A stretch of DNA of 39,507 nt. Source: a virus. Taxonomy: Duplodnaviria; Caudoviricetes. The DNA lies in IMG/VR virus record IMGVR_UViG_3300033067_000354, positions 1-39,507 of that record. One strand, given 5' to 3'. The notes below the pieces were generated by a model. That model worked only from the letters and a program-made list of their open reading frames with translations, was not told where the DNA came from and did not search any database. Shown one piece after another: positions 12,036 through 21,937 of the stretch (its first letter is position 1; each line of letters begins with the position of its first letter). The translations under genes and the position numbers were made by a program.

Positions 12036-12382
12036 TACCTTACCCCGTAGCCCAGCGCGCTGGGCGGTGCCTGAATGGCGTTCTGGATGAGCCGCAGAAG
12101 CTGCTCATCGCTCAGTTGGCCCAGCGTCGTCGTCGTGATCGCGCCGGGGGCGTAGGGGTCCGCAGGCGGCTGCGCCGGGGTGGCTGCGACGGGTGCCATA
12201 GATGTGGGTCCAGACATCGGTCGCGGCGCTGGCCGCGCTGCGGATAGGCGATCCTGATAGCCCATCGGCCTGATGCCGAGGCTGTTCAGGAAATCAGATA
12301 GGGGTCCACCCTCGAAGGTCTGACCAGCGCGGCCCGCGCCGCCGCCGTCCAGCATGTCGATCAGGCCCAGATAGTTCGCCAT
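12035..12382 (-). CDS. Hypothetical protein coupled to terL
   Basis: ATG at 12382 overlaps the terL stop (TGATG); 115 aa MANYLGLIDMLDGGGAGRAGQTFEGGPLS... Confidence 0.65.
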   Translation of the reverse strand: MANYLGLIDMLDGGGAGRAGQTFEGGPLSDFLNSLGIRPMGYQDRLSAARPAPRPMSGPTSMAPVAATPAQPPADPYAPGAITTTTLGQLSDEQLLRLIQNAIQAPPSALGYGVR

Positions 12383-13791
12383 CAGGCGATCCCCTTCAAG
12401 TTTCGACGGATCGGTCGTCCCCAGTTGGTGGACGGCGACCCCAGTGACGTCGCGGCATCCCCGGCAAAGGTCAGGAAGACGGCGTCGGCCTTGTCCGGGC
12501 TGCGGAGGCCCCGGCGTCGCATGTCGTCCTTGCTCTCGGCCTTCATTTTGCCCGTGCTGGCGAAAGAATACCTGATGCTGGTCATCTCGGCAATCAATTC
12601 CCCGTCGCTCGGTAGGCGGCTCCCCCGCTGCTCCAGCCAGCCCCGGAAGCGGAAGATCAGTTCCGTCCTCAGGTTGTTGTACGTCGCCCCAAACGCGGGG
12701 GCCTCGCTGACGTTCACGGCACGGACGGGCAGGCCCAGTTCGCGCAGGCGGTCGTGCACGCCGCTGCCCAGACCGATGACGTCCACAAGGATCTCGCTGG
12801 GCCGCTCGGACGGCAGCAGGCCGTCGTATTGGGCCTTCACGCGGCCCACGGTCTGCATCAGATCCAGACCCTTCCACGTCTCCACCTCGGTGATGACTGG
12901 CCCCCGGCGCTTGGCCAGCGCCGTGCGGTCGCTGCCGAACCGCGCGACGTCCAGCCCCCAGACGGGCTTCGTCGTCGGGCTGGGCTGCACGTCGCGGGCC
13001 TTCGCGGCCTCGGCCAGATGCAGCGGGATGATCGTGTCGTCGTCGCCCAGCGGGAACTCACCCAGAACGCGGATGCGGTAGGCGTTGCTGTCGATGCCGT
13101 AGCGGGTGGCCATCTCCTCCACGAACTCCGCGCTGACGCGCTTGCTGTCGATGCAGGACCAGTGCAGCGTCAGCCAGTGGCTGGACAGGCGGGTGTGCGT
13201 CTCGAAGAACGTGCCGCTCGACCGCGTCGGGTTGCCCGCCAAGATCGTCGTCGCGCTGTGGCCCGACATGCTGCCGGACGCCGCCTCGAAGACCTGTTCC
13301 GGCACGCCGCTGGCCTCATCGACCACCAGCAGGACGTTGTCGCTGTGGACCCCGGCCAATGCTTCGGGCTGCTCGGCGCGGCTGGTCCGGGCCGAGATGA
13401 ACGCCTCGCTGGGCGCGGCGATCAGTTCGATCCTGTCCGTCTTCGTCTCCAGCAGCACCTTCAGCGCGGGCGGCAGTTCATTGATCCACCGCTTCAGTTC
13501 CGCGAACAGGGCGTCATAAAGCTGGGCCGTCGTCGGCGCGGTGACGACCACCTTGCACGGAAACCGGAACAGCACGAACCACAGCATCGACCAGCTAAGG
13601 CTGGTGGACTTGCCCGTGCCGTGGCCGCTGCGGACGCTGATCTTGCGCTCACCGCGCCCGACCGCCCGCAGCAGGTCGTCTTGGTAATCCTCAGGCGTCG
13701 CGCCGAGGATCTCGCGCACGAAGAGGCCGGGGCCTTCCTCCGTCGTGCCGTACCGGGCGATCATATCGTCAAACGGGTTGTCGGTCGTCAT
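12382..13791 (-). CDS. terL: Terminase large subunit
   Basis: Walker A SGHGTGKS, Walker B LLVVDEA, GNP motif, nuclease GLDVARFGSD and SPDKADA. Confidence 0.95.
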   Translation of the reverse strand: MTTDNPFDDMIARYGTTEEGPGLFVREILGATPEDYQDDLLRAVGRGERKISVRSGHGTGKSTSLSWSMLWFVLFRFPCKVVVTAPTTAQLYDALFAELKRWINELPPALKVLLETKTDRIELIAAPSEAFISARTSRAEQPEALAGVHSDNVLLVVDEASGVPEQVFEAASGSMSGHSATTILAGNPTRSSGTFFETHTRLSSHWLTLHWSCIDSKRVSAEFVEEMATRYGIDSNAYRIRVLGEFPLGDDDTIIPLHLAEAAKARDVQPSPTTKPVWGLDVARFGSDRTALAKRRGPVITEVETWKGLDLMQTVGRVKAQYDGLLPSERPSEILVDVIGLGSGVHDRLRELGLPVRAVNVSEAPAFGATYNNLRTELIFRFRGWLEQRGSRLPSDGELIAEMTSIRYSFASTGKMKAESKDDMRRRGLRSPDKADAVFLTFAGDAATSLGSPSTNWGRPIRRNLKGIA

Positions 13792-14252
13792 TCTGCCGTC
13801 CCCTCAATCGTGATCGCCGCGTCGCCGTCGCGCCGCTTCTTCAGGGCGTCCAGATGCAACTGGTTGATGTTGATCGTGACGGTCGGGCCGTTCTTGTTCT
13901 GCTGATACCGATCCGGGTTGTTCACCGTCGCCAGCCACTTCCTGACGTCGATGCGCTCCTTGGCCACCGCGATCTGCTCCCGCGTGATCCCGTCCGCATC
14001 GGCCAAGTTGTCCGCGATCTGCAGGGCCTCTTCCGCCAGCGCGTCGGCCTGCTCCCGGCGCGCCTCATCGATCATCGGCCTGTAATCTTCGTGGGCGTTC
14101 AGGTGTCGGCTCAGGTAGGTTCTGGAACAGCCCAGTTCGTTGGCCAGATCCAAGATCGTGCCGCCGCTGGCGATGTACTCTCTGACGTACTCAGGCCCGC
14201 CACGGTCGCCGATCTCGGCCAGCAGCCGCTTCTTCAGTGCTTTCCCCGCCAT
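13788..14252 (-). CDS. terS: Terminase small subunit
   Basis: Immediately upstream of and overlapping terL; N-terminal HTH; ADALAEEALQIAD...RIDVRKW motif. Confidence 0.8.
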   Translation of the reverse strand: MAGKALKKRLLAEIGDRGGPEYVREYIASGGTILDLANELGCSRTYLSRHLNAHEDYRPMIDEARREQADALAEEALQIADNLADADGITREQIAVAKERIDVRKWLATVNNPDRYQQNKNGPTVTININQLHLDALKKRRDGDAAITIEGTAE

Positions 14253-14463
14253 GTGCTACTCCATTGGTGCCTCGGTGATTGTGGGCGAAATCTCAAAAAT
14301 TTTCAAGGTGCGGGGGTTTCGTGGGTGGGGCGGGGGGTCGGGTGTTTGGTACTTGGTATGGGGTCGATCCGTGTCAGGCTGCATCGGCAGCGGCCCCCGC
14401 CTTAACCCCTCCGGGGCGGGGGGCCTCGCGTTTCCGTGGGCGTTTGGGGCGATCCGGGCCGCG

Positions 14464-14491
14464 TTCTCCGATAACCCACATTATGTAATAT
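14464..14491 (+). other. dif-like XerC/XerD recombination site
   Basis: TTCTCCGATAA-CCCACA-TTATGTAATAT: 11-6-11 layout with ATAA-N6-TTAT core; right arm close to the XerD arm TTATGTTAAAT. Confidence 0.65.
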
Positions 14492-14505
14492 GCGGTCGTC
14501 AATGA

Positions 14506-14518
14506 TATCAATGACTTA
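14506..14518 (+). promoter_or_regulatory. IHF-binding consensus site
   Basis: TATCAATGACTTA matches WATCAANNNNTTR exactly; AT-rich island in a GC-rich genome. Confidence 0.55.
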
Positions 14519-14652
14519 GCGTTTCATGCCTATCTCCGGTTGAGCGGATGACGTACCTCGACGGTGTCATCGTGCCTCGGCGACGGTGCCTCGGCCCTCG
14601 CGCGGGCGCGGGCGCTGCGAGGCGGCGTGCGTCGCAGAGGGGTTTGAGGTGG

Positions 14653-14722
14653 ACCAGACACCACGCACCATGCACCAGACACGCCTGCCGCCTGCCGCCT
14701 GCCGCCGCACCAGACACGCCTG
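14653..14722 (+). repeat. Short direct repeats in the non-coding region
   Basis: ACCAGACAC x3 (14653, 14674, 14709); GCACCAGACACGCCTG x2; (GCCTGCC)x3 at 14683-14703. Confidence 0.7.
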
Positions 14723-14898
14723 TCGCTGCCCCAGATCCTCGGCCCCGGAACGCAAACGGCGGCGACCCTGAGGATCGCCGCCGTCGCTGGCACTGCCACG
14801 GCCAGCAGCGGGAGGAAGCGACCGCTGGCGGGCACAGCCATAGCACGACGGGCGACGGGCACGCAACGGCCTCGGTCGGCCACAGCCCCGCCGCGACC

Positions 14899-15175
14899 CA
14901 CAACAGCACAACACCGAAAACCCCCAGATTTCATTACTCCTATAGAAAATACATAGTACACCAATATAGTACCTCTACACTACTACACTACCCTCTTATA
15001 TATCTTCCTATCCTTCCGGTATAGTAGTGGGTGTTGTGACTGTAGTGAAGCACCTAAACCCTTGAACCACATGACATTTCCGGCACAACAGCCACCCCGC
15101 CACCGCCTGTTGTGCCCGCCCGACCGGGTGAAGTGGGTGTTGTGGTCGTCACAACACCCTCTCCGCGCCACAACA
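14899..15175. other. Putative replication origin (CACAACA iterons around an AT-rich core)
   Basis: CACAACA forward at 14899, 14907, 15084, 15150, 15169 and reverse at 15032, 15108, 15138; AT-rich ~14916-15030; just downstream of the primase-helicase gene. Confidence 0.6.
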
Positions 15176-15185
15176 CCCGCTCACA

Positions 15186-17681
15186 TCACCCCACAACGCC
15201 CGTGATGCGCCCGTCGCGCGTGGCCTGCTCCAGCGCCGACAGCATCCGGTTCACGTCCGACGCGGGCGCAAGCAGATCGAACCGACGCGACTGCGGCGTC
15301 TCGGCCCAGATACCTCGCACGCCCTCCGCTGCCCGGTAGTAGACCGTCAGCAGCTTCTGCCGACCGTCAGGCCCGACGACCGTCTGCCGCGTCGGCATGG
15401 CACGCCAGCCCATGCTGCTCTCCGCGCGCAGGATGTCCTGCGCCCTGCGCCACCAGTTCTTCAGGTGGTCGCCCTCGCCCGACGCCGTGACGGCGTTCTG
15501 CATGCGCCGCCGCAGATCCTCGTTGGCGATGAAGTCACCCGGCACGCGCGACAGCACGTCACGCAGGATGTCTTCCACGTCGCCCTCGTTCTGCTGCTGC
15601 ATCACCATGCGGCCCTCGCCGAGGTTCGGTGCCTCACGCACGGCGTCCCAGTCCACCATCACACCACACAGCGCGTCGCGCAGGGCCGTGCCGAACTCAG
15701 CCGTGAACACGCCATCGGGACGCCAGCGGTTGACCAGATCCGGCAGGCCCGGACAGTCGATGAATTTGACGTCCTCCTGCATCAGCACCGCGAAGCGGCG
15801 GTCATCTACCGTCAGCGGCAGCGCGTTCAGGTGGTTGGTGGCCAGCAGCATCGACGCGAAGATCTCGGCGGAATAGGCGTTGATGTTCTTCTTGCGGATC
15901 GCCACCTCGCGCCGCCGGGGATCGACATATGACTTCAGCCGCTCGTAGCTTTCCCGGCGCTTCCACGCCATCGACCCGCCGCCGTCATCGCCCGCCATGA
16001 CCTCATCGCAGGTCACCAGCACGCTGTCGGCCAGCCAGCCATTGTACTGGCCCTGCCCGCTGCCGCCCATCAGTTCCACGGACGTCACGGGCGACACATT
16101 GCGCGACCCGAAGACCGCGCCCAGCATGTCGAACAGCGTGCCACGGCCCGTGCCTTGGATGCTGGCCACCAGCAGCACGCCGCAGCCGATCACCCACGGG
16201 CGCTGCACCTTCGCCGCCACCCACATGCGGAACCAGTCACGCTCGGCCTCCACGGGCAGCAGATGGGCGATCAGGGCCTCAAAGGCATCGACGGCATCGA
16301 TGCCGTCACGACCGACCGGGACATCTTCCGGCGCGCGATAGGTGTTGACGAAGGTGCGACCGCCGATCTCCACCAGCAGGTCACGGCTGTCGGGCCGATA
16401 CCGATAGCCCGACACATCCACGCGACGCGGGTCGGCCACCCACAAGCCGACCGGGTGAACGGTCTGCTCACCGCCACGCGGCCCGACGACGGTCACGGCG
16501 TGCGGCTGCATCAGGGTGCGGAAGTTGGCGATGGTCATCGCCCCCTCGGCAGGCGACGACAGCGGCACGACGCACCGCTGCTCGGACGGCATGTAGACGT
16601 ACTCTTCCAGCATCGCATCGACCACCAGTTCCATCTGGTCGCGCATCTCAGCGCCAGCGCCCACCGTCGCAGCCTGCGGGGCCGTGGACGGCGTCGCGCC
16701 ACCGAACAGCGTGCTGCCAGCCGCCAGTTGCTGCAGGCGATCCAGCGCCCCCTGCGGGATCGGGCGCGGTGCCAGCGCGGCGGGGCGGTGCGTCTCGTAG
16801 GACGCCGTCTCAAGGATCGACAGGCGACCGTCGCGCGGGTGGATGGAGGCGATGCAGCGCGTCATGTTCACCGCCGCCGCGCCCTCCAGCCACGACGCCG
16901 ACAGGCGGATGGTGCCGTGCAACTCACACAGCGCCTCCAGATCGGCCAGCCCCATCGTGCCGTGGTCGCGCGTCTCGAAATCCTGCGCGTCCAGATCATA
17001 GATCGGCGTCGGGCTGCTGAACCCCGGCTTCGACCGCACGTCGCGCTGCCAGCCCAGTTCATCCAGCACACGCGTGGCCGTGTCGGCGATGGTGACCAAC
17101 TGGGCGCGCGTCAGGCGCGGCAGATGGTTGAAGTGGACGTCGGCGAGGCCGATGTCGCCCGACCAATAGTACTGCACGGCCACGTTGCCATGCTCATCGA
17201 TGGTGTGCGCGCCATATGCACCAAACTGACGCCCGCCGCCCTCACCCGCGAACACCTCGACGCGGTGCACCGTCTCATCGCCAGCGGCCTGCCGGAAGCC
17301 TGCAGAGGCCAGCCGATAGAACGGCTCCTCACCATCGGCCAGACGGCAGAACCACGCCTCCTTGGCCCCCTTGCCGCGCCGCACGGGCGCATCCTGCAGG
17401 ATCGACCAGATCTCGGCGGGGATCGCATCCACGATGGCGTCAAGGGCGTCGTCGTCGTTCACGTCCAGATCGATGGCGACCAGACCGCCCTCAATCCGCA
17501 CGCCCGTGCCGCGCCACTTCAGTTGCTGCGACCACGCATCGATCTGGGCCGCGTCGACGTGCAGATCGGGCCACCCTTTCAGCACACACATCTTGTCCTT
17601 GTTCGCCAGCGGAACATAGCCGTTGGCCAGCATGCGGCGGCGCAGGTCCGTCTGTGCCGCGATCTCTTCTGTCTTGTTCAT
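15186..17681 (-). CDS. Primase-helicase (N-terminal prim-pol-like domain, C-terminal SF3/DUF5906-like ATPase)
   Basis: Start MNKTEE at 17681 with GAGGGG RBS; GYVPL..K...KGW...AIDLDV; QGTGRGTL, VTCDE, ATNH, DDRRFAV. Confidence 0.85.
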   Translation of the reverse strand: MNKTEEIAAQTDLRRRMLANGYVPLANKDKMCVLKGWPDLHVDAAQIDAWSQQLKWRGTGVRIEGGLVAIDLDVNDDDALDAIVDAIPAEIWSILQDAPVRRGKGAKEAWFCRLADGEEPFYRLASAGFRQAAGDETVHRVEVFAGEGGGRQFGAYGAHTIDEHGNVAVQYYWSGDIGLADVHFNHLPRLTRAQLVTIADTATRVLDELGWQRDVRSKPGFSSPTPIYDLDAQDFETRDHGTMGLADLEALCELHGTIRLSASWLEGAAAVNMTRCIASIHPRDGRLSILETASYETHRPAALAPRPIPQGALDRLQQLAAGSTLFGGATPSTAPQAATVGAGAEMRDQMELVVDAMLEEYVYMPSEQRCVVPLSSPAEGAMTIANFRTLMQPHAVTVVGPRGGEQTVHPVGLWVADPRRVDVSGYRYRPDSRDLLVEIGGRTFVNTYRAPEDVPVGRDGIDAVDAFEALIAHLLPVEAERDWFRMWVAAKVQRPWVIGCGVLLVASIQGTGRGTLFDMLGAVFGSRNVSPVTSVELMGGSGQGQYNGWLADSVLVTCDEVMAGDDGGGSMAWKRRESYERLKSYVDPRRREVAIRKKNINAYSAEIFASMLLATNHLNALPLTVDDRRFAVLMQEDVKFIDCPGLPDLVNRWRPDGVFTAEFGTALRDALCGVMVDWDAVREAPNLGEGRMVMQQQNEGDVEDILRDVLSRVPGDFIANEDLRRRMQNAVTASGEGDHLKNWWRRAQDILRAESSMGWRAMPTRQTVVGPDGRQKLLTVYYRAAEGVRGIWAETPQSRRFDLLAPASDVNRMLSALEQATRDGRITGVVG

Positions 17682-17691
17682 GCTGATCCCC

Positions 17692-19863
17692 TCAGTCCAC
17701 GGTCTTGGTGTAATAGAAACTCTCGCTGGCCTCGCACGCGATGGGCAGGCCATCGAAACAGGCGGGGAGGTCCAACATAGCAGTTGTCAGGGCCTCACGC
17801 CCAGCCGCTGCATCTTGTGTGTCGGTCAGGGCGATGACCTCATCGTGGGTGTGACCCACAACCAGTTGTGGCCAGTCCCGGTCCAGACGGTAGATGACGT
17901 GGCGCAGCAGCGACCCGGCCACGGCCTGCACGGCATTCTCCACCAGCGTGCCGTACCACAGGGCCGCGCGCCCGTAGCCGCGCCGATAGGTCAACTGTTC
18001 CTTGATCTCGACCTTCCCGGTCAGCTTGTCGCGCCGCTCCCGGCGCTCCCACTTGATGACAGGGTACAGCAGCGGCCTGCCATCGGGCAGCAGGCAGATC
18101 AGCGTGCCGTGCATGTAGTCGGGCAGGTAGACGTAGGTCAGGCGCGTGCCCACGGCGCGTGGATGGCCCGGATTGTGCATGCACCACAGGGCGGCTTCCC
18201 ATGTGTCGTCCCAATAAGCGCGCGCCCACGGGTTCACGGCACGCCACTTGGACACGATCTCGCCTGCCTCGCCATCGGTGAAGCTGGCCCCATAGTTCCG
18301 CGCCATGTTGAACAGGGCACCCTTGCCGCCCCCGAAGCCCAGCGACAGGACGGGCACCTTGCCGTGGCTCTGCCGCTCCTGCTTGGTCACGGCCTTAGCA
18401 TCCTTGCCGAGGATCGAACCCGCTTGCAGCTTGTAGATGTCGGGCAGGCTGGGATCTGCGTCATTGGCCCGGAAGATGTCCAGCACGGCACCGCCGCCAA
18501 ACGCCTCGCCCAGCCACGGCAGGACGCGCGCTTCAATGGCCGAATAGTCGGCCCACAGCATCTTCTGCCCCACCGGGGCGGTGAACACGGGCCGGATCAG
18601 GCGCGACAGCGTGCGACCGACAGGCCCCTGCTTGGCCAAATCGTCATAGGTACAGTCGGACAGGATGTCGTTGATGATCTCCAGTTCCTTGGCCTGATCG
18701 CCGACCGTGGACCGCGTCAGGTTGTGGATCTGCAGGCCGCGCGATGAGAACCGCCCCGTCGCCGCCGCGCCGTTGAAGACGTACTGGCCGCACAGGCGGT
18801 CGTCAGCCGTCAGCATCGGCAGCAGCTTGGTGAACTTGCGCGGCGTGGCGCTGGCCCCATAGGCCCGGACCTGCAGCACCTGATAGACCTGCCACTCTTC
18901 GTCCGTCAGGCCCTGCTCCGCATCCATCCGCTCCAGATAGGCGATCAGATCCTCGACCCGCGACCGCTCCAGCGAATGCTTTTCCAGCCGCACGACGCCG
19001 TCGCCCTCTTCCTCCTGCTCTTCCACCACCTCGCGCAGGAGGATCATCTTGGCTTCGGACAGGTGGTCGATGCGGTCCAGCACCCACGCGCACAGGGCCT
19101 CATGCTGGTTGACGGTCCTGATCGCGCCCTCGGTCAGCCTCTGGATGTCGCTGTTGGCCCGGAAGGCGTTGTCCTCGGCCAGCCGCGACGCGGCCTCGGC
19201 AAAGGCCCGGTCCACGGGCATGCCGATCTCATTGACCCGCTCACTGGCCCAGTACTGCTGCCACTCCATCAGCGACAGGGGCAGCGTGGCCTGCCACACC
19301 GTCCGCATGGGCGGGATGTCGTCCAGCGCGTATTCGCAGAAGGCCAGCCACTGGTCCGGGTACTCTGCCGGGTCGGCGAAGGGCGGCACGCAGAATAGCT
19401 GGATCAGGCGCTTGCCTTCGGGCCGCTTCTGGACCTCGGCCTTGGCGATCTTGCCAGCCCCGGCCAGATCGGGCGGGAGGTGCGACCGCACCGCCTGCGC
19501 CATGGCGTCAAGGAAGTGTTCCGTCCGCAGCCAAGAGCCGTTCCGCATGCCGCGCGACAGGGAGAGGCGGTCGAAGGCGGCGTTCCATGCGACGAAATGC
19601 GCCTCGCCAGCCTCGACCCGCTCGGAGAATGCCCACAGGTCGTCGGGCGCGTCGTTCCAGTCCAGCCAGCCCCCGGCGTGGGCCTGTTCCTGCTTCCAGA
19701 TTTTTACGGGGCCGTCGCCAATGGCATAGGTCACGATCATCACCCGGAAGGCCGGGTCGGCGCTGTACGGGTAGACGCCCGTGGCCTTCAGGTCGGCCCC
19801 GGACAGCGTTTCGGTGTCGATGAAGCAATAGTTCCCGATGTCGGGCGAGAGATAGCTGGTCAT
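17692..19863 (-). CDS. DNA polymerase family A with 3'-5' exonuclease
   Basis: ExoI DTET, ExoII WNAAFD, ExoIII YALDD; TGRFSS; motif A ADYSAIEARV; motif B K...L...FG; motif C HTHDE. Confidence 0.95.
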   Translation of the reverse strand: MTSYLSPDIGNYCFIDTETLSGADLKATGVYPYSADPAFRVMIVTYAIGDGPVKIWKQEQAHAGGWLDWNDAPDDLWAFSERVEAGEAHFVAWNAAFDRLSLSRGMRNGSWLRTEHFLDAMAQAVRSHLPPDLAGAGKIAKAEVQKRPEGKRLIQLFCVPPFADPAEYPDQWLAFCEYALDDIPPMRTVWQATLPLSLMEWQQYWASERVNEIGMPVDRAFAEAASRLAEDNAFRANSDIQRLTEGAIRTVNQHEALCAWVLDRIDHLSEAKMILLREVVEEQEEEGDGVVRLEKHSLERSRVEDLIAYLERMDAEQGLTDEEWQVYQVLQVRAYGASATPRKFTKLLPMLTADDRLCGQYVFNGAAATGRFSSRGLQIHNLTRSTVGDQAKELEIINDILSDCTYDDLAKQGPVGRTLSRLIRPVFTAPVGQKMLWADYSAIEARVLPWLGEAFGGGAVLDIFRANDADPSLPDIYKLQAGSILGKDAKAVTKQERQSHGKVPVLSLGFGGGKGALFNMARNYGASFTDGEAGEIVSKWRAVNPWARAYWDDTWEAALWCMHNPGHPRAVGTRLTYVYLPDYMHGTLICLLPDGRPLLYPVIKWERRERRDKLTGKVEIKEQLTYRRGYGRAALWYGTLVENAVQAVAGSLLRHVIYRLDRDWPQLVVGHTHDEVIALTDTQDAAAGREALTTAMLDLPACFDGLPIACEASESFYYTKTVD

Positions 19864-20636: not shown

Positions 20637-20691
20637 CCAATACCGTGCTGGGTCGGTTCCACCCAGTGTGACATCCTCGGAGGAAGAGACG

Positions 20692-21129
20692 ATGTTTGGA
20701 CTTTTGAAAGACAAGTTCAGTGGCGGCGCTGCCCGCATGAACGGCAAGCTGGACCTGCTGGAGGGCATCTGTGCCGCTGGCGTGCTGGTCGGCGCTGCTG
20801 ACGGCGATCTGTCGGACGACGAAGCGGCGACCGCTCTGGACCGTCTGGTGAACCATGAGGTGCTGTCCAAGGCATTCTCTGGCACCCAGATCGAAACCGC
20901 CTTCGACAAGCAGGCCAAGCGCGCCAAGAGCGGCATGTCGGGCCGTCTGGCGCTGCGCCGTGAGGTCGAAGACGTGAAGAACAAATCCTCCATGGATGAG
21001 TGCGAGATGCTGCTGGTCATCGCCATCGACGTGGCGGCGACCGATGGCGACATCGGCCCCAAAGAGATGGCCGTCCTGCGGACCATCGCGCAGGCGATGG
21101 GCCTGTCGCTTGATCGGTACATCGGCTGA
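20692..21129 (+). CDS. terB: TerB-family protein
   Basis: Duplicated AADG.L...E / ATDG.I...E motifs; start at 20692 with GGAGG RBS. Confidence 0.85.
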   Translation: MFGLLKDKFSGGAARMNGKLDLLEGICAAGVLVGAADGDLSDDEAATALDRLVNHEVLSKAFSGTQIETAFDKQAKRAKSGMSGRLALRREVEDVKNKSSMDECEMLLVIAIDVAATDGDIGPKEMAVLRTIAQAMGLSLDRYIG

Positions 21130-21425: not shown

Positions 21426-21701
21426 ATGATCATCAACAAGGGTTTCACGGACAGGTCAAACGTCAGCCTGATCAGCACGCCGCGCGCCGCCGACACGGCC
21501 CGCGTTGAGACGGTGAACATCCTGCGCCGCCGTGCCTCGCTATCGAATAGCCGGGCACCCATGGACGTCGTCATGATCCGCGACAATGAGGGCATGACGC
21601 GTGACATCGTGACGGGCGTGCCGCCGTCATTCAATGCCGAGGCCCGCGCCGCGTGGGCCAAACGCCGGGAAGATGCAATGATTGAAGGACTGTTCAAATG
21701 A
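21426..21701 (+). CDS. Hypothetical protein
   Basis: 91 aa; overlaps the next start. Confidence 0.55.
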   Translation: MIINKGFTDRSNVSLISTPRAADTARVETVNILRRRASLSNSRAPMDVVMIRDNEGMTRDIVTGVPPSFNAEARAAWAKRREDAMIEGLFK

Positions 21702-21937
21702 CCAAAGGTGAATACCGCGTCGGGATCTCGTTCAACCCGTCAGGCGATGACATCGTCGGTCGGATTAAGAGCATGGCTGCGGCCATGATCGATTTCATCG
21801 ACGGCATCGAGACGCCTGACAGCGGGCTGTCTCCGCAGGGGGTGGAGGTGGCCCGGTGCAAGGCGCTGGCCCAGACCCATATCGAAGACGCGGCCATGTG
21901 GGCGGTGAAGGCGGCAACGAAGGGACCGATGGCATGA
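21698..21937 (+). CDS. Acb2/Tad1-like helical-hairpin protein (candidate immune-signal sponge)
   Basis: 79 aa; RCKALAQTHIEDAAMWAVK resembles the Tad1 C-terminal R...A.THxExAxMW helix. Confidence 0.65.
   Translation: MTKGEYRVGISFNPSGDDIVGRIKSMAAAMIDFIDGIETPDSGLSPQGVEVARCKALAQTHIEDAAMWAVKAATKGPMA

Follow-up and report, generated by a model that had tools for sequence, protein, structure and literature searches.

A dif-like site with an adjacent IHF box near the predicted packaging end of a podovirus in which no recombinase gene was found

Introduction

What does a dif-like site do in a tailed phage in which no recombinase gene can be found? The question is raised by positions 14464–14518 of the window, by which we mean the whole 39,507-nucleotide stretch of DNA analyzed here, a complete 39.4-kb podovirus genome (the record is 100% complete, with a 77-bp end or assembly overlap). 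A preliminary description of this DNA proposed that the phage uses host XerCD either to integrate at chromosomal dif or to resolve circular multimers, for example in plasmid-like carriage, perhaps with IHF as architectural factor. The handling and circularization of the ends of short-terminal-repeat phages without a recombinase have so far been poorly defined.

The dif-like site and its surroundings

The structural module of the window phage is of the phiM5/LUZ24 type (its TerL and capsid proteins are 54% and 43% identical, respectively, to those of phiM5), and the features of the region between terL and the primase gene are as follows:

12382..13791, minus strand: terL, 54% identical to phiM5 TerL
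13788..14252, minus strand: terS, Sf6-like small terminase (phrog_1482, PF20901)
14278..14306, minus strand: candidate sigma-70 promoter for terS, separate from the dif-like site (9/12 match)
14379..14427, minus strand: C-run/G-run motif, predicted inner edge of a direct terminal repeat; similar to a phiM5 motif and kept in close relatives
14380..14800 (outer edge unsure, about 14740–14860), no strand: predicted direct terminal repeat, which would hold the dif-like site and IHF box (from phiM5 geometry)
14464..14474, plus strand: XerC-type arm of the dif-like site; inner ATAA near-invariant across 52 distinct phage sites
14475..14480, plus strand: central 6-bp spacer CCCACA, different from host spacers and variable among relatives
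14481..14491, plus strand: XerD-type arm TTATGTAATAT, near alphaproteobacterial variants (Table 1 of PMC2731167)
14506..14518, plus strand: IHF consensus box, 14 bp past the XerD arm
14528..14541, plus strand: candidate third box GCCTATCTCCGGTT beyond IHF, weak, the motif being derived post hoc from the same sequences
14896..15180, no strand: AT-rich island with GTGGGTGTTGTG repeats, putative origin; a neighbor outside the Xer module
15186..17753, minus strand: primase-helicase, neighboring gene (phrog_1156)

The 28-mer TTCTCCGATAA-CCCACA-TTATGTAATAT (14464–14491) has the 11-6-11 layout of a dif-type core, two 11-bp arms with inner ATAA and TTAT around a 6-bp center, and the IHF consensus TATCAATGACTTA (14506–14518) follows after a gap of 14 bp; both stand where the preliminary description had placed them, and each has one match in the window. 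An arms-only matrix, which was built from 26 host-like dif sites picked by pattern and so is circular on the core, gave the site 26.5 bits and the next best window position 4.4 bits (its own reverse strand aside). The 55 bp of 14464–14518 form one of five low-GC islands (36% GC versus 66% in the genome), which bears out the AT-rich island noted earlier. Shuffled sequences contained a dif-core match at up to one mismatch in 9 of 100 cases (the real site has 0 mismatches) and an IHF match in 8 of 100, and we take each motif alone to be only modestly beyond chance and the window by itself to be suggestive only. The arms appear to resemble the alphaproteobacterial dif variants listed in Table 1 of PMC2731167. 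The spacer CCCACA is absent from the 26 host dif sites, a set that may not include the real host of the phage, and is not among the matches listed from 301 Alphaproteobacteria (185 with a match, a further 106 matches lying beyond the listing; the tally includes the unpublished genome G074). The KOPS-like motif GGGNAGGG occurs seven times in the genome, and a single octamer (16058, minus strand) points at the XerD side; chance can give one such octamer, and the motif may not be the host's KOPS.

Profile searches of the window found no tyrosine recombinase (PF00589; controls 14/14), serine resolvase (PF00239), ParA or FtsK-gamma, and no repressor-type HTH outside terS. No integrase was found among the 62 ORFs scanned against PHROGs, a scan that gave one weak transposase match (E = 6.5e-4) located on terS. 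The earlier statement that the complete genome has no recombinase gene thus agrees with the PF00589, PF00239 and PHROGs searches, and the suggestion of plasmid-like carriage becomes weak, no ParA or repressor having been found in the window.

Beside the AT-rich island, GTGGGTGTTGTG repeats in direct and inverted orientation at 15026–15182, at the end of the primase gene, form a putative origin that is incidental to the dif-like site. The closest structural relatives (G007–G009, capsid 82–83% identical) have no match to the window's primase, polymerase or helicase, and since these relatives with other replication genes keep the site, it tracks the packaging end and not the origin. In the gene order of the window, terL is well apart from the portal-capsid block.

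Conservation of the site among relatives

TerL was used to collect relatives from IMG/VR (80 loci, the best of 587) and TerS to collect them from metagenomes (65 loci). Scoring required a C-run with 200 bp or more past it; of the window plus these 145 relatives 117 loci qualified, and the others were dropped. The site was present near the C-run motif in 72 of the 117 loci and absent from 45, so the positional conservation upstream of terS that the preliminary description had suggested checking was found, with the site optional. Many of the 117 loci are near-copies, and for this reason counts are given below on 52 distinct 28-mers. Among the TerL relatives from IMG/VR (again the best 80 of 587), 46 had 2.3 kb or more of upstream sequence, and 21 of these reached 14 bits or more; none of the 57 downstream controls that were 1.5 kb or longer did so, and a single shorter one reached 14.6 bits. 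Presence of dif differs between phages with identical TerL (L017/L018, L039/L034 and L051/L040; the TerL tree is a quick version only), the arms have decayed at the same position in the close relatives L002–L004, a decayed dif-like site lies between terS and terL in L085, and the orientation of the site is flipped in L061, L076 and L077. In one marine clade dif travels together with an upstream module.

The arms are more conserved than the center, and spacer positions 1–5 carry 0.1–0.6 bits (52 distinct sites; the inner arms are part of the search rule). These 52 sites have 37 different spacers, two of which are common to the host set (TGTATA and TATGTA, in one marine clade, where the canonical TGTATA is kept). 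The closest relatives all differ in spacer (e.g., TGCCTA, TCACCA, GGTCCA, GCCCCA and TCTCCA), both spacer halves vary among close relatives, and mean spacer GC is 0.41 in 15 phage sites versus 0.15 in 26 host sites. A contig of run X20 departs from the window at 14479, within the spacer; ATAA is retained in it at unchanged spacing, next to a different spacer. Such a free spacer is expected if the recombination partner would be a second copy of the same site.

Several other observations were made on these relatives. In the dif-less marine relatives L034, L040, L066 and L018, AATGCTTAACATGTTAAAC lies ~690 bp upstream of terL, where dif-bearing relatives have dif; it could be a decayed, flipped dif or another binding site. 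An anticorrelation of dif with a RuvC-like resolvase (0/18 dif-plus versus 20/24 dif-minus upstream regions) was set aside as linkage, the dif-plus G017 having a PD-(D/E)XK nuclease in the matching place. The idea that dif replaces an integrase is unsupported, with an integrase in 0 of 6 complete relatives with or without dif.

The IHF box is spaced to the dif-like site

Allowing up to one mismatch, an IHF-like box was found near 52 of 72 dif loci versus 7 of 45 dif-less loci (2 of the 7 being decayed sites). Of the 52 distinct sites, 30 have it on the same strand at exactly 14 bp past the XerD arm, and 4 at 24 bp, one helical turn further; when the gaps at these loci are binned, 14 is the commonest value (34 distinct), followed by 30 (9), and no other gap exceeds 3. 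IHF is tied to dif and not to the C-run, since this spacing is fixed and the C-run lies at anything from 44 to 196 bp. A reading of IHF as a pure packaging element is disfavored on this ground, and IHF is probably the architectural partner of the dif-like site, as the preliminary description had supposed. Near terL, IHF boxes were seen in dif-less loci too (L086, L091, L092, L094 and phage Venkman), and IHF may have a packaging role.

None of 33 host loci had a gap of 14, and among 120 general viral dif loci a single one did. The paired dif-14-IHF pattern occurred in 1 of 401 Pseudomonadota genomes, where the sole match (L438, G540:C26:13427-13474) is followed by G-runs and is probably phage DNA, and in about 240 IMG/VR stretches, of which 54 of the 63 with an XerD-like tail and enough flank have a G-run on the XerC side. 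A control with 19-bp spacing was not clean, catching 94 stretches (an XerD-like tail in 53, many from one family), and because it also caught many dif-like sites, the 14-bp spacing is best described as lineage-specific and not universal. One viral family (L558–L651) has a dif-like core with spacer CTAATA or CTAATG and an IHF box at 19 bp.

A further box stands past IHF at offset 12 in the window clade and at offset 9 or 19 in marine relatives, with a copy 44 bp later (22/37; the motif was derived from the same sequences). The TAAGTCCAG-type box of L389, L394, L395, L411 and others is at offset 9 or 19 from IHF and is repeated exactly 44 bp later; this array looks like an accessory array or an XerC half-site mimic.

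Position relative to the predicted packaging terminus

In phiM5 a motif similar to the C-run/G-run of the window lies at nt ~310–350 of the annotated 357-bp direct terminal repeat, at its inner edge, and LUZ24 has C6/G6 runs at both repeat edges. On the phiM5 geometry dif and IHF would fall inside the terminal repeat of the window phage; on a LUZ24 geometry, with the C-run at the outer edge, dif would be just outside the repeat and in single copy. The earlier reading missed this terminus position, which is probably inside the terminal repeat; a site at a predicted packaging terminus suggests that the phage's own DNA ends are joined.

The distance from dif to the C-run is 44 to 200 bp in nearly all dif-bearing loci; sites are 49–156 bp outside the next C6 run in 28 of 30 cases, with two outliers at about 760–780 bp. 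C6/G6 runs were found near 34 of 71 dif sites versus 4 of 129 control windows, a comparison that is used loosely since the controls are mostly coding. In two of seven distinct runs, X19 and X3, contigs over about 14405–14864 have 1.5–2 times the depth of their neighbors, a weak hint of a repeat (the other five runs are uninformative); these are contig depths and not copy numbers, and similar depth values are reached by other bins. Contig ends beyond the C-run are not clearly clustered in the relatives and metagenome loci.

An apparent closeness of contig ends to dif (19/120 within 350 bp, 7.0 expected; control 2/59, with 59 of the 60 control rows counted) was discarded, since five of these contigs share one flank and look like ~5-kb elements at host dif. 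These are gut viral contigs of ~5 kb (L114, L126, L127, L191 and L201) with a common flank at canonical dif, probably small elements integrated at host dif. In L002, L003, L017 and L020, HNH endonuclease genes are inserted at the predicted terminus, between the C-run and terS.

dif-like sites in other tailed phages

A strict dif pattern was found in about 780 IMG/VR stretches versus 60 for the reversed pattern, a 13-fold excess. An integrase survey covered the 33 of 38 long dif contigs that were listed, and 15 controls; tyrosine integrases were not depleted among the dif contigs (8/33 versus 3/15). Nineteen of the 33 were then examined by scanning selected ORFs near the site, namely all 8 with an integrase and 11 near-complete or end-repeat records, and TerL of several families lies at most 1.4 kb from dif in 13 of the 19. 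In 5 of the 8 integrase-bearing contigs, from three lineages, dif is beside terL and the integrase is 15–37 kb distant, and in these five phages dif is not the attachment site.

Cultured phages have dif-like sites as well. A blastn search with a relative's site matched 97 Escherichia phage records, those among the matches listed being rV5-like. The annotated 459-bp repeat of phage Gotham contains GGTGCGCATAA-TGGGTA-TTATGTTAAAT in each of its two copies, with arms equal to those of E. coli dif (Table 1 of PMC2731167) and a different spacer; Hena1 has the same arms with spacer GGTGTA within a 519-bp annotated repeat, and dif is the sole blastn match between the two repeats. Other non-host spacers are found in 4MG, KpS8, POP18, UPEC06 and 18-1-2, and dif-like sites lie near terL in Ralstonia phage phiITL-1, Hafnia phage yong1 and Staphylococcus phage MVC_VPHSA1. 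No adjacent IHF box was found in this cultured set (Gotham, Hena1, the other rV5-like phages, phiITL-1, yong1 and MVC_VPHSA1). The lytic Enterococcus Saphexavirus phages Pumpjack and Toy (L358 and L359) have a dif-like 28-mer in a long non-coding region. The dif-in-repeat design that the rV5-like coliphages share makes tests in E. coli K-12 feasible.

A possible route for end-joining by host XerCD

The dif-like site is likely to be a working host XerC/XerD recombination site, and we give roughly even credence to a scheme in which host XerCD joins two end copies, circularizing the DNA after injection, and in which IHF serves this lineage as an architectural cofactor. With dif inside the predicted direct terminal repeat, the linear DNA of every virion would have the site twice, as identical and directly oriented copies close to its two ends, and recombination between them by host XerCD after injection would produce a circle. 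Because both partners would be copies of one sequence, no match to the 6-bp spacer of the host would be required; the phage spacer would be able to drift freely, and its mismatch would also exclude the phage from chromosomal dif. IHF bound 14 bp past the XerD arm might bend the DNA so that the synapse is built or activated, perhaps together with the third box, an accessory role that we liken to that of PepA and ArgR at cer. We infer from sequence the termini of this phage as well as Xer binding, recombination, its timing and its activator.

Several findings count against end-joining. As 45 of the 117 loci lack the site, it is optional, and its arms have decayed in L002–L004; chromosomal dif needs FtsK for XerD activation (PMC5357621), yet no FtsK-gamma was found in the window and the genome has the one KOPS-like octamer; one marine clade keeps TGTATA; and the rV5-like sites have no adjacent IHF box. 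A wider proposal can be put forward only tentatively, that many unrelated tailed phages, lytic ones included, carry a spacer-insulated host dif in their terminal redundancy at which host XerCD closes the injected genome, and that this lineage uses an IHF-assisted, FtsK-independent Xer mode with its own accessory boxes.

Alternative readings of the site

Self-recombination could instead come later in the cycle, with XerCD resolving (or making) multimers of replicating circles or concatemers as at cer and psi, and with the terminus position secondary. The arm, spacer and IHF data fit this equally; dif is also found beside TerL families other than phrog_2 and in integrase-bearing phages, and in the marine clade it moves along with the upstream module. 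A site that resolves multimers could stand anywhere, however, yet the site is tied to the C-run and is inside the annotated repeats of Gotham and Hena1, and neither ParA nor a repressor was found in the window to suggest plasmid-like carriage. We think this reading doubtful.

It is unlikely that XerCD and IHF bind without completing recombination, serving as scaffold, as protection of the ends or as a place for FtsK to dock in duplication of the terminal repeat or initiation of packaging. Binding of this kind would explain a free spacer and decayed arms, and it has parallels in the known role of IHF at lambda cosB (PMC4856287) and in the IHF boxes near terL without dif; against it, both arms and the exact 6-bp spacing are kept, enterobacterial phages have outer arms matched to the host, and IHF is spaced to dif and not to the C-run.

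Integration at chromosomal dif, the other use proposed by the preliminary description, would make the site an attP and the phage a tailed IMEX, and we consider it quite unlikely. No recombinase was found in the window, the site comes after the primase gene, a place occupied in phiM5 by the integrase, VGJ-type IMEXs accept partial spacer mismatch (PMC5357621), and one marine clade has a canonical spacer, all of which would suit an attP. In the attP sites of known IMEXs, the XerC side or the whole center remains homologous to host dif (PMC5357621), unlike in the phage sites, where both spacer halves vary among close relatives and spacers differ between near-identical phages as well as from the host. 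No hybrid phage-host dif site and no prophage flanked by dif halves was found in 13 GTDB loci, 65 metagenome loci and 7 runs, a search of limited power; there was no prophage edge at dif in the 13 GTDB loci (2 of them isolate contigs with long flanks) and no long loose end at the site among the matches listed for the 7 runs, and the close metagenome relatives listed have phage-type flanks to either side of the site. The integrase-bearing phages with dif beside terL share the arrangement, their integrases lying 15–37 kb away, integrases are undepleted among dif contigs, and no repressor was found in the window.

A chance AT-rich match, or a site that is simply the terS promoter, is very improbable and largely refuted: each motif alone does arise in 8–9% of shuffles, but the arms are conserved with a free spacer, the orientation is flipped in some relatives, the strict pattern exceeds its reversal 13-fold, and a sigma-70 promoter scan gave no promoter-like match over 14464–14518, the candidate promoter lying apart at 14278–14306.

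The preliminary description thus stands in its reading of an XerC/XerD-type site, which proved conserved and beyond chance, and it is weakened in both integration and plasmid-like carriage.

Relation to known systems

End-joining at the phage site can be set beside several known systems. Cre/loxP of phage P1 closes linear DNA into a circle. P1 also circularizes through its terminal repeats by RecBCD (bioRxiv 2021.07.08.451572). The phage arrangement is like Cre/loxP in having a recombination site in the terminal redundancy (predicted for the window, annotated in Gotham and Hena1) that could close injected DNA; it differs in that the recombinase would be the host's and in having a short exact repeat rather than headful redundancy. 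Plasmid cer and psi (PMC5357621) have host XerCD acting between two copies on one replicon with accessory DNA and host architectural proteins, as would the scheme proposed here, although the accessory factor would be IHF and not PepA, ArgR or ArcA, the center is 6 bp versus the 8 bp of cer, and no plasmid functions were found. The phage site would work like a plasmid Xer site or the P1 lox site yet is neither.

The chromosomal dif/XerCD/FtsK system of Proteobacteria (PMC2731167) shares with the phage site a 28-bp 11-6-11 layout, inner ATAA/TTATG, a better-conserved XerD arm, and an intergenic, single-copy position per unit genome. In contrast to chromosomal dif, the phage site stands at a predicted packaging end, has a GC-rich and variable spacer, is accompanied, 14 bp past its XerD arm, by an IHF box (seen in 0 of 33 host loci), and shows no clear KOPS skew. 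The IMEXs CTX, VGJ, TLC and GGI (PMC5357621 and PMC9226527) likewise have no recombinase of their own and use a dif-like site for host XerCD; their attP, as described there, has homology to host dif on the XerC side or center and usually a degenerate XerD arm, with XafT or FtsK-gamma as activator, whereas the phage site has an intact XerD arm and a free spacer, belongs to a tailed dsDNA phage, and had no integrated copy, the mark of an IMEX, in the loci and runs searched. IHF is not mentioned in either of these two papers.

Lambda cosB has its I1 IHF site near a packaging end (PMC4856287), as the phage has its box, which is spaced to the XerD arm and not to the terminus motif. The phiM5/LUZ24-type podoviruses share the TerL and capsid similarity given above and the C/G-run terminus motif, but phiM5 has its own integrase and no dif. 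No report of dif at tailed-phage termini was found among the papers listed in literature searches (including PMC10386132, PMC3556154 and bioRxiv 633727), most subscription papers lying outside their coverage.

If the host-Xer route is true, mobile DNA would be exploiting XerCD in a third way, next to integration and plasmid resolution, with IHF as a new accessory factor, and an IHF-assisted, FtsK-independent Xer mode, if true, would be undescribed for chromosomes, plasmids and IMEXs. A dif site in a phage should not be read as attP by default.

Other genes of the window phage

Two further genes of the window were noted in passing. An Acb2/Tad1 hairpin-domain protein (21698–21937, plus strand; PF24729, E = 6e-13) is a predicted sponge against CBASS or Thoeris signals, and a TerB-family protein is encoded at 20668–21129 (plus strand; PF05099), phiM5 likewise having an annotated tellurite-resistance protein.
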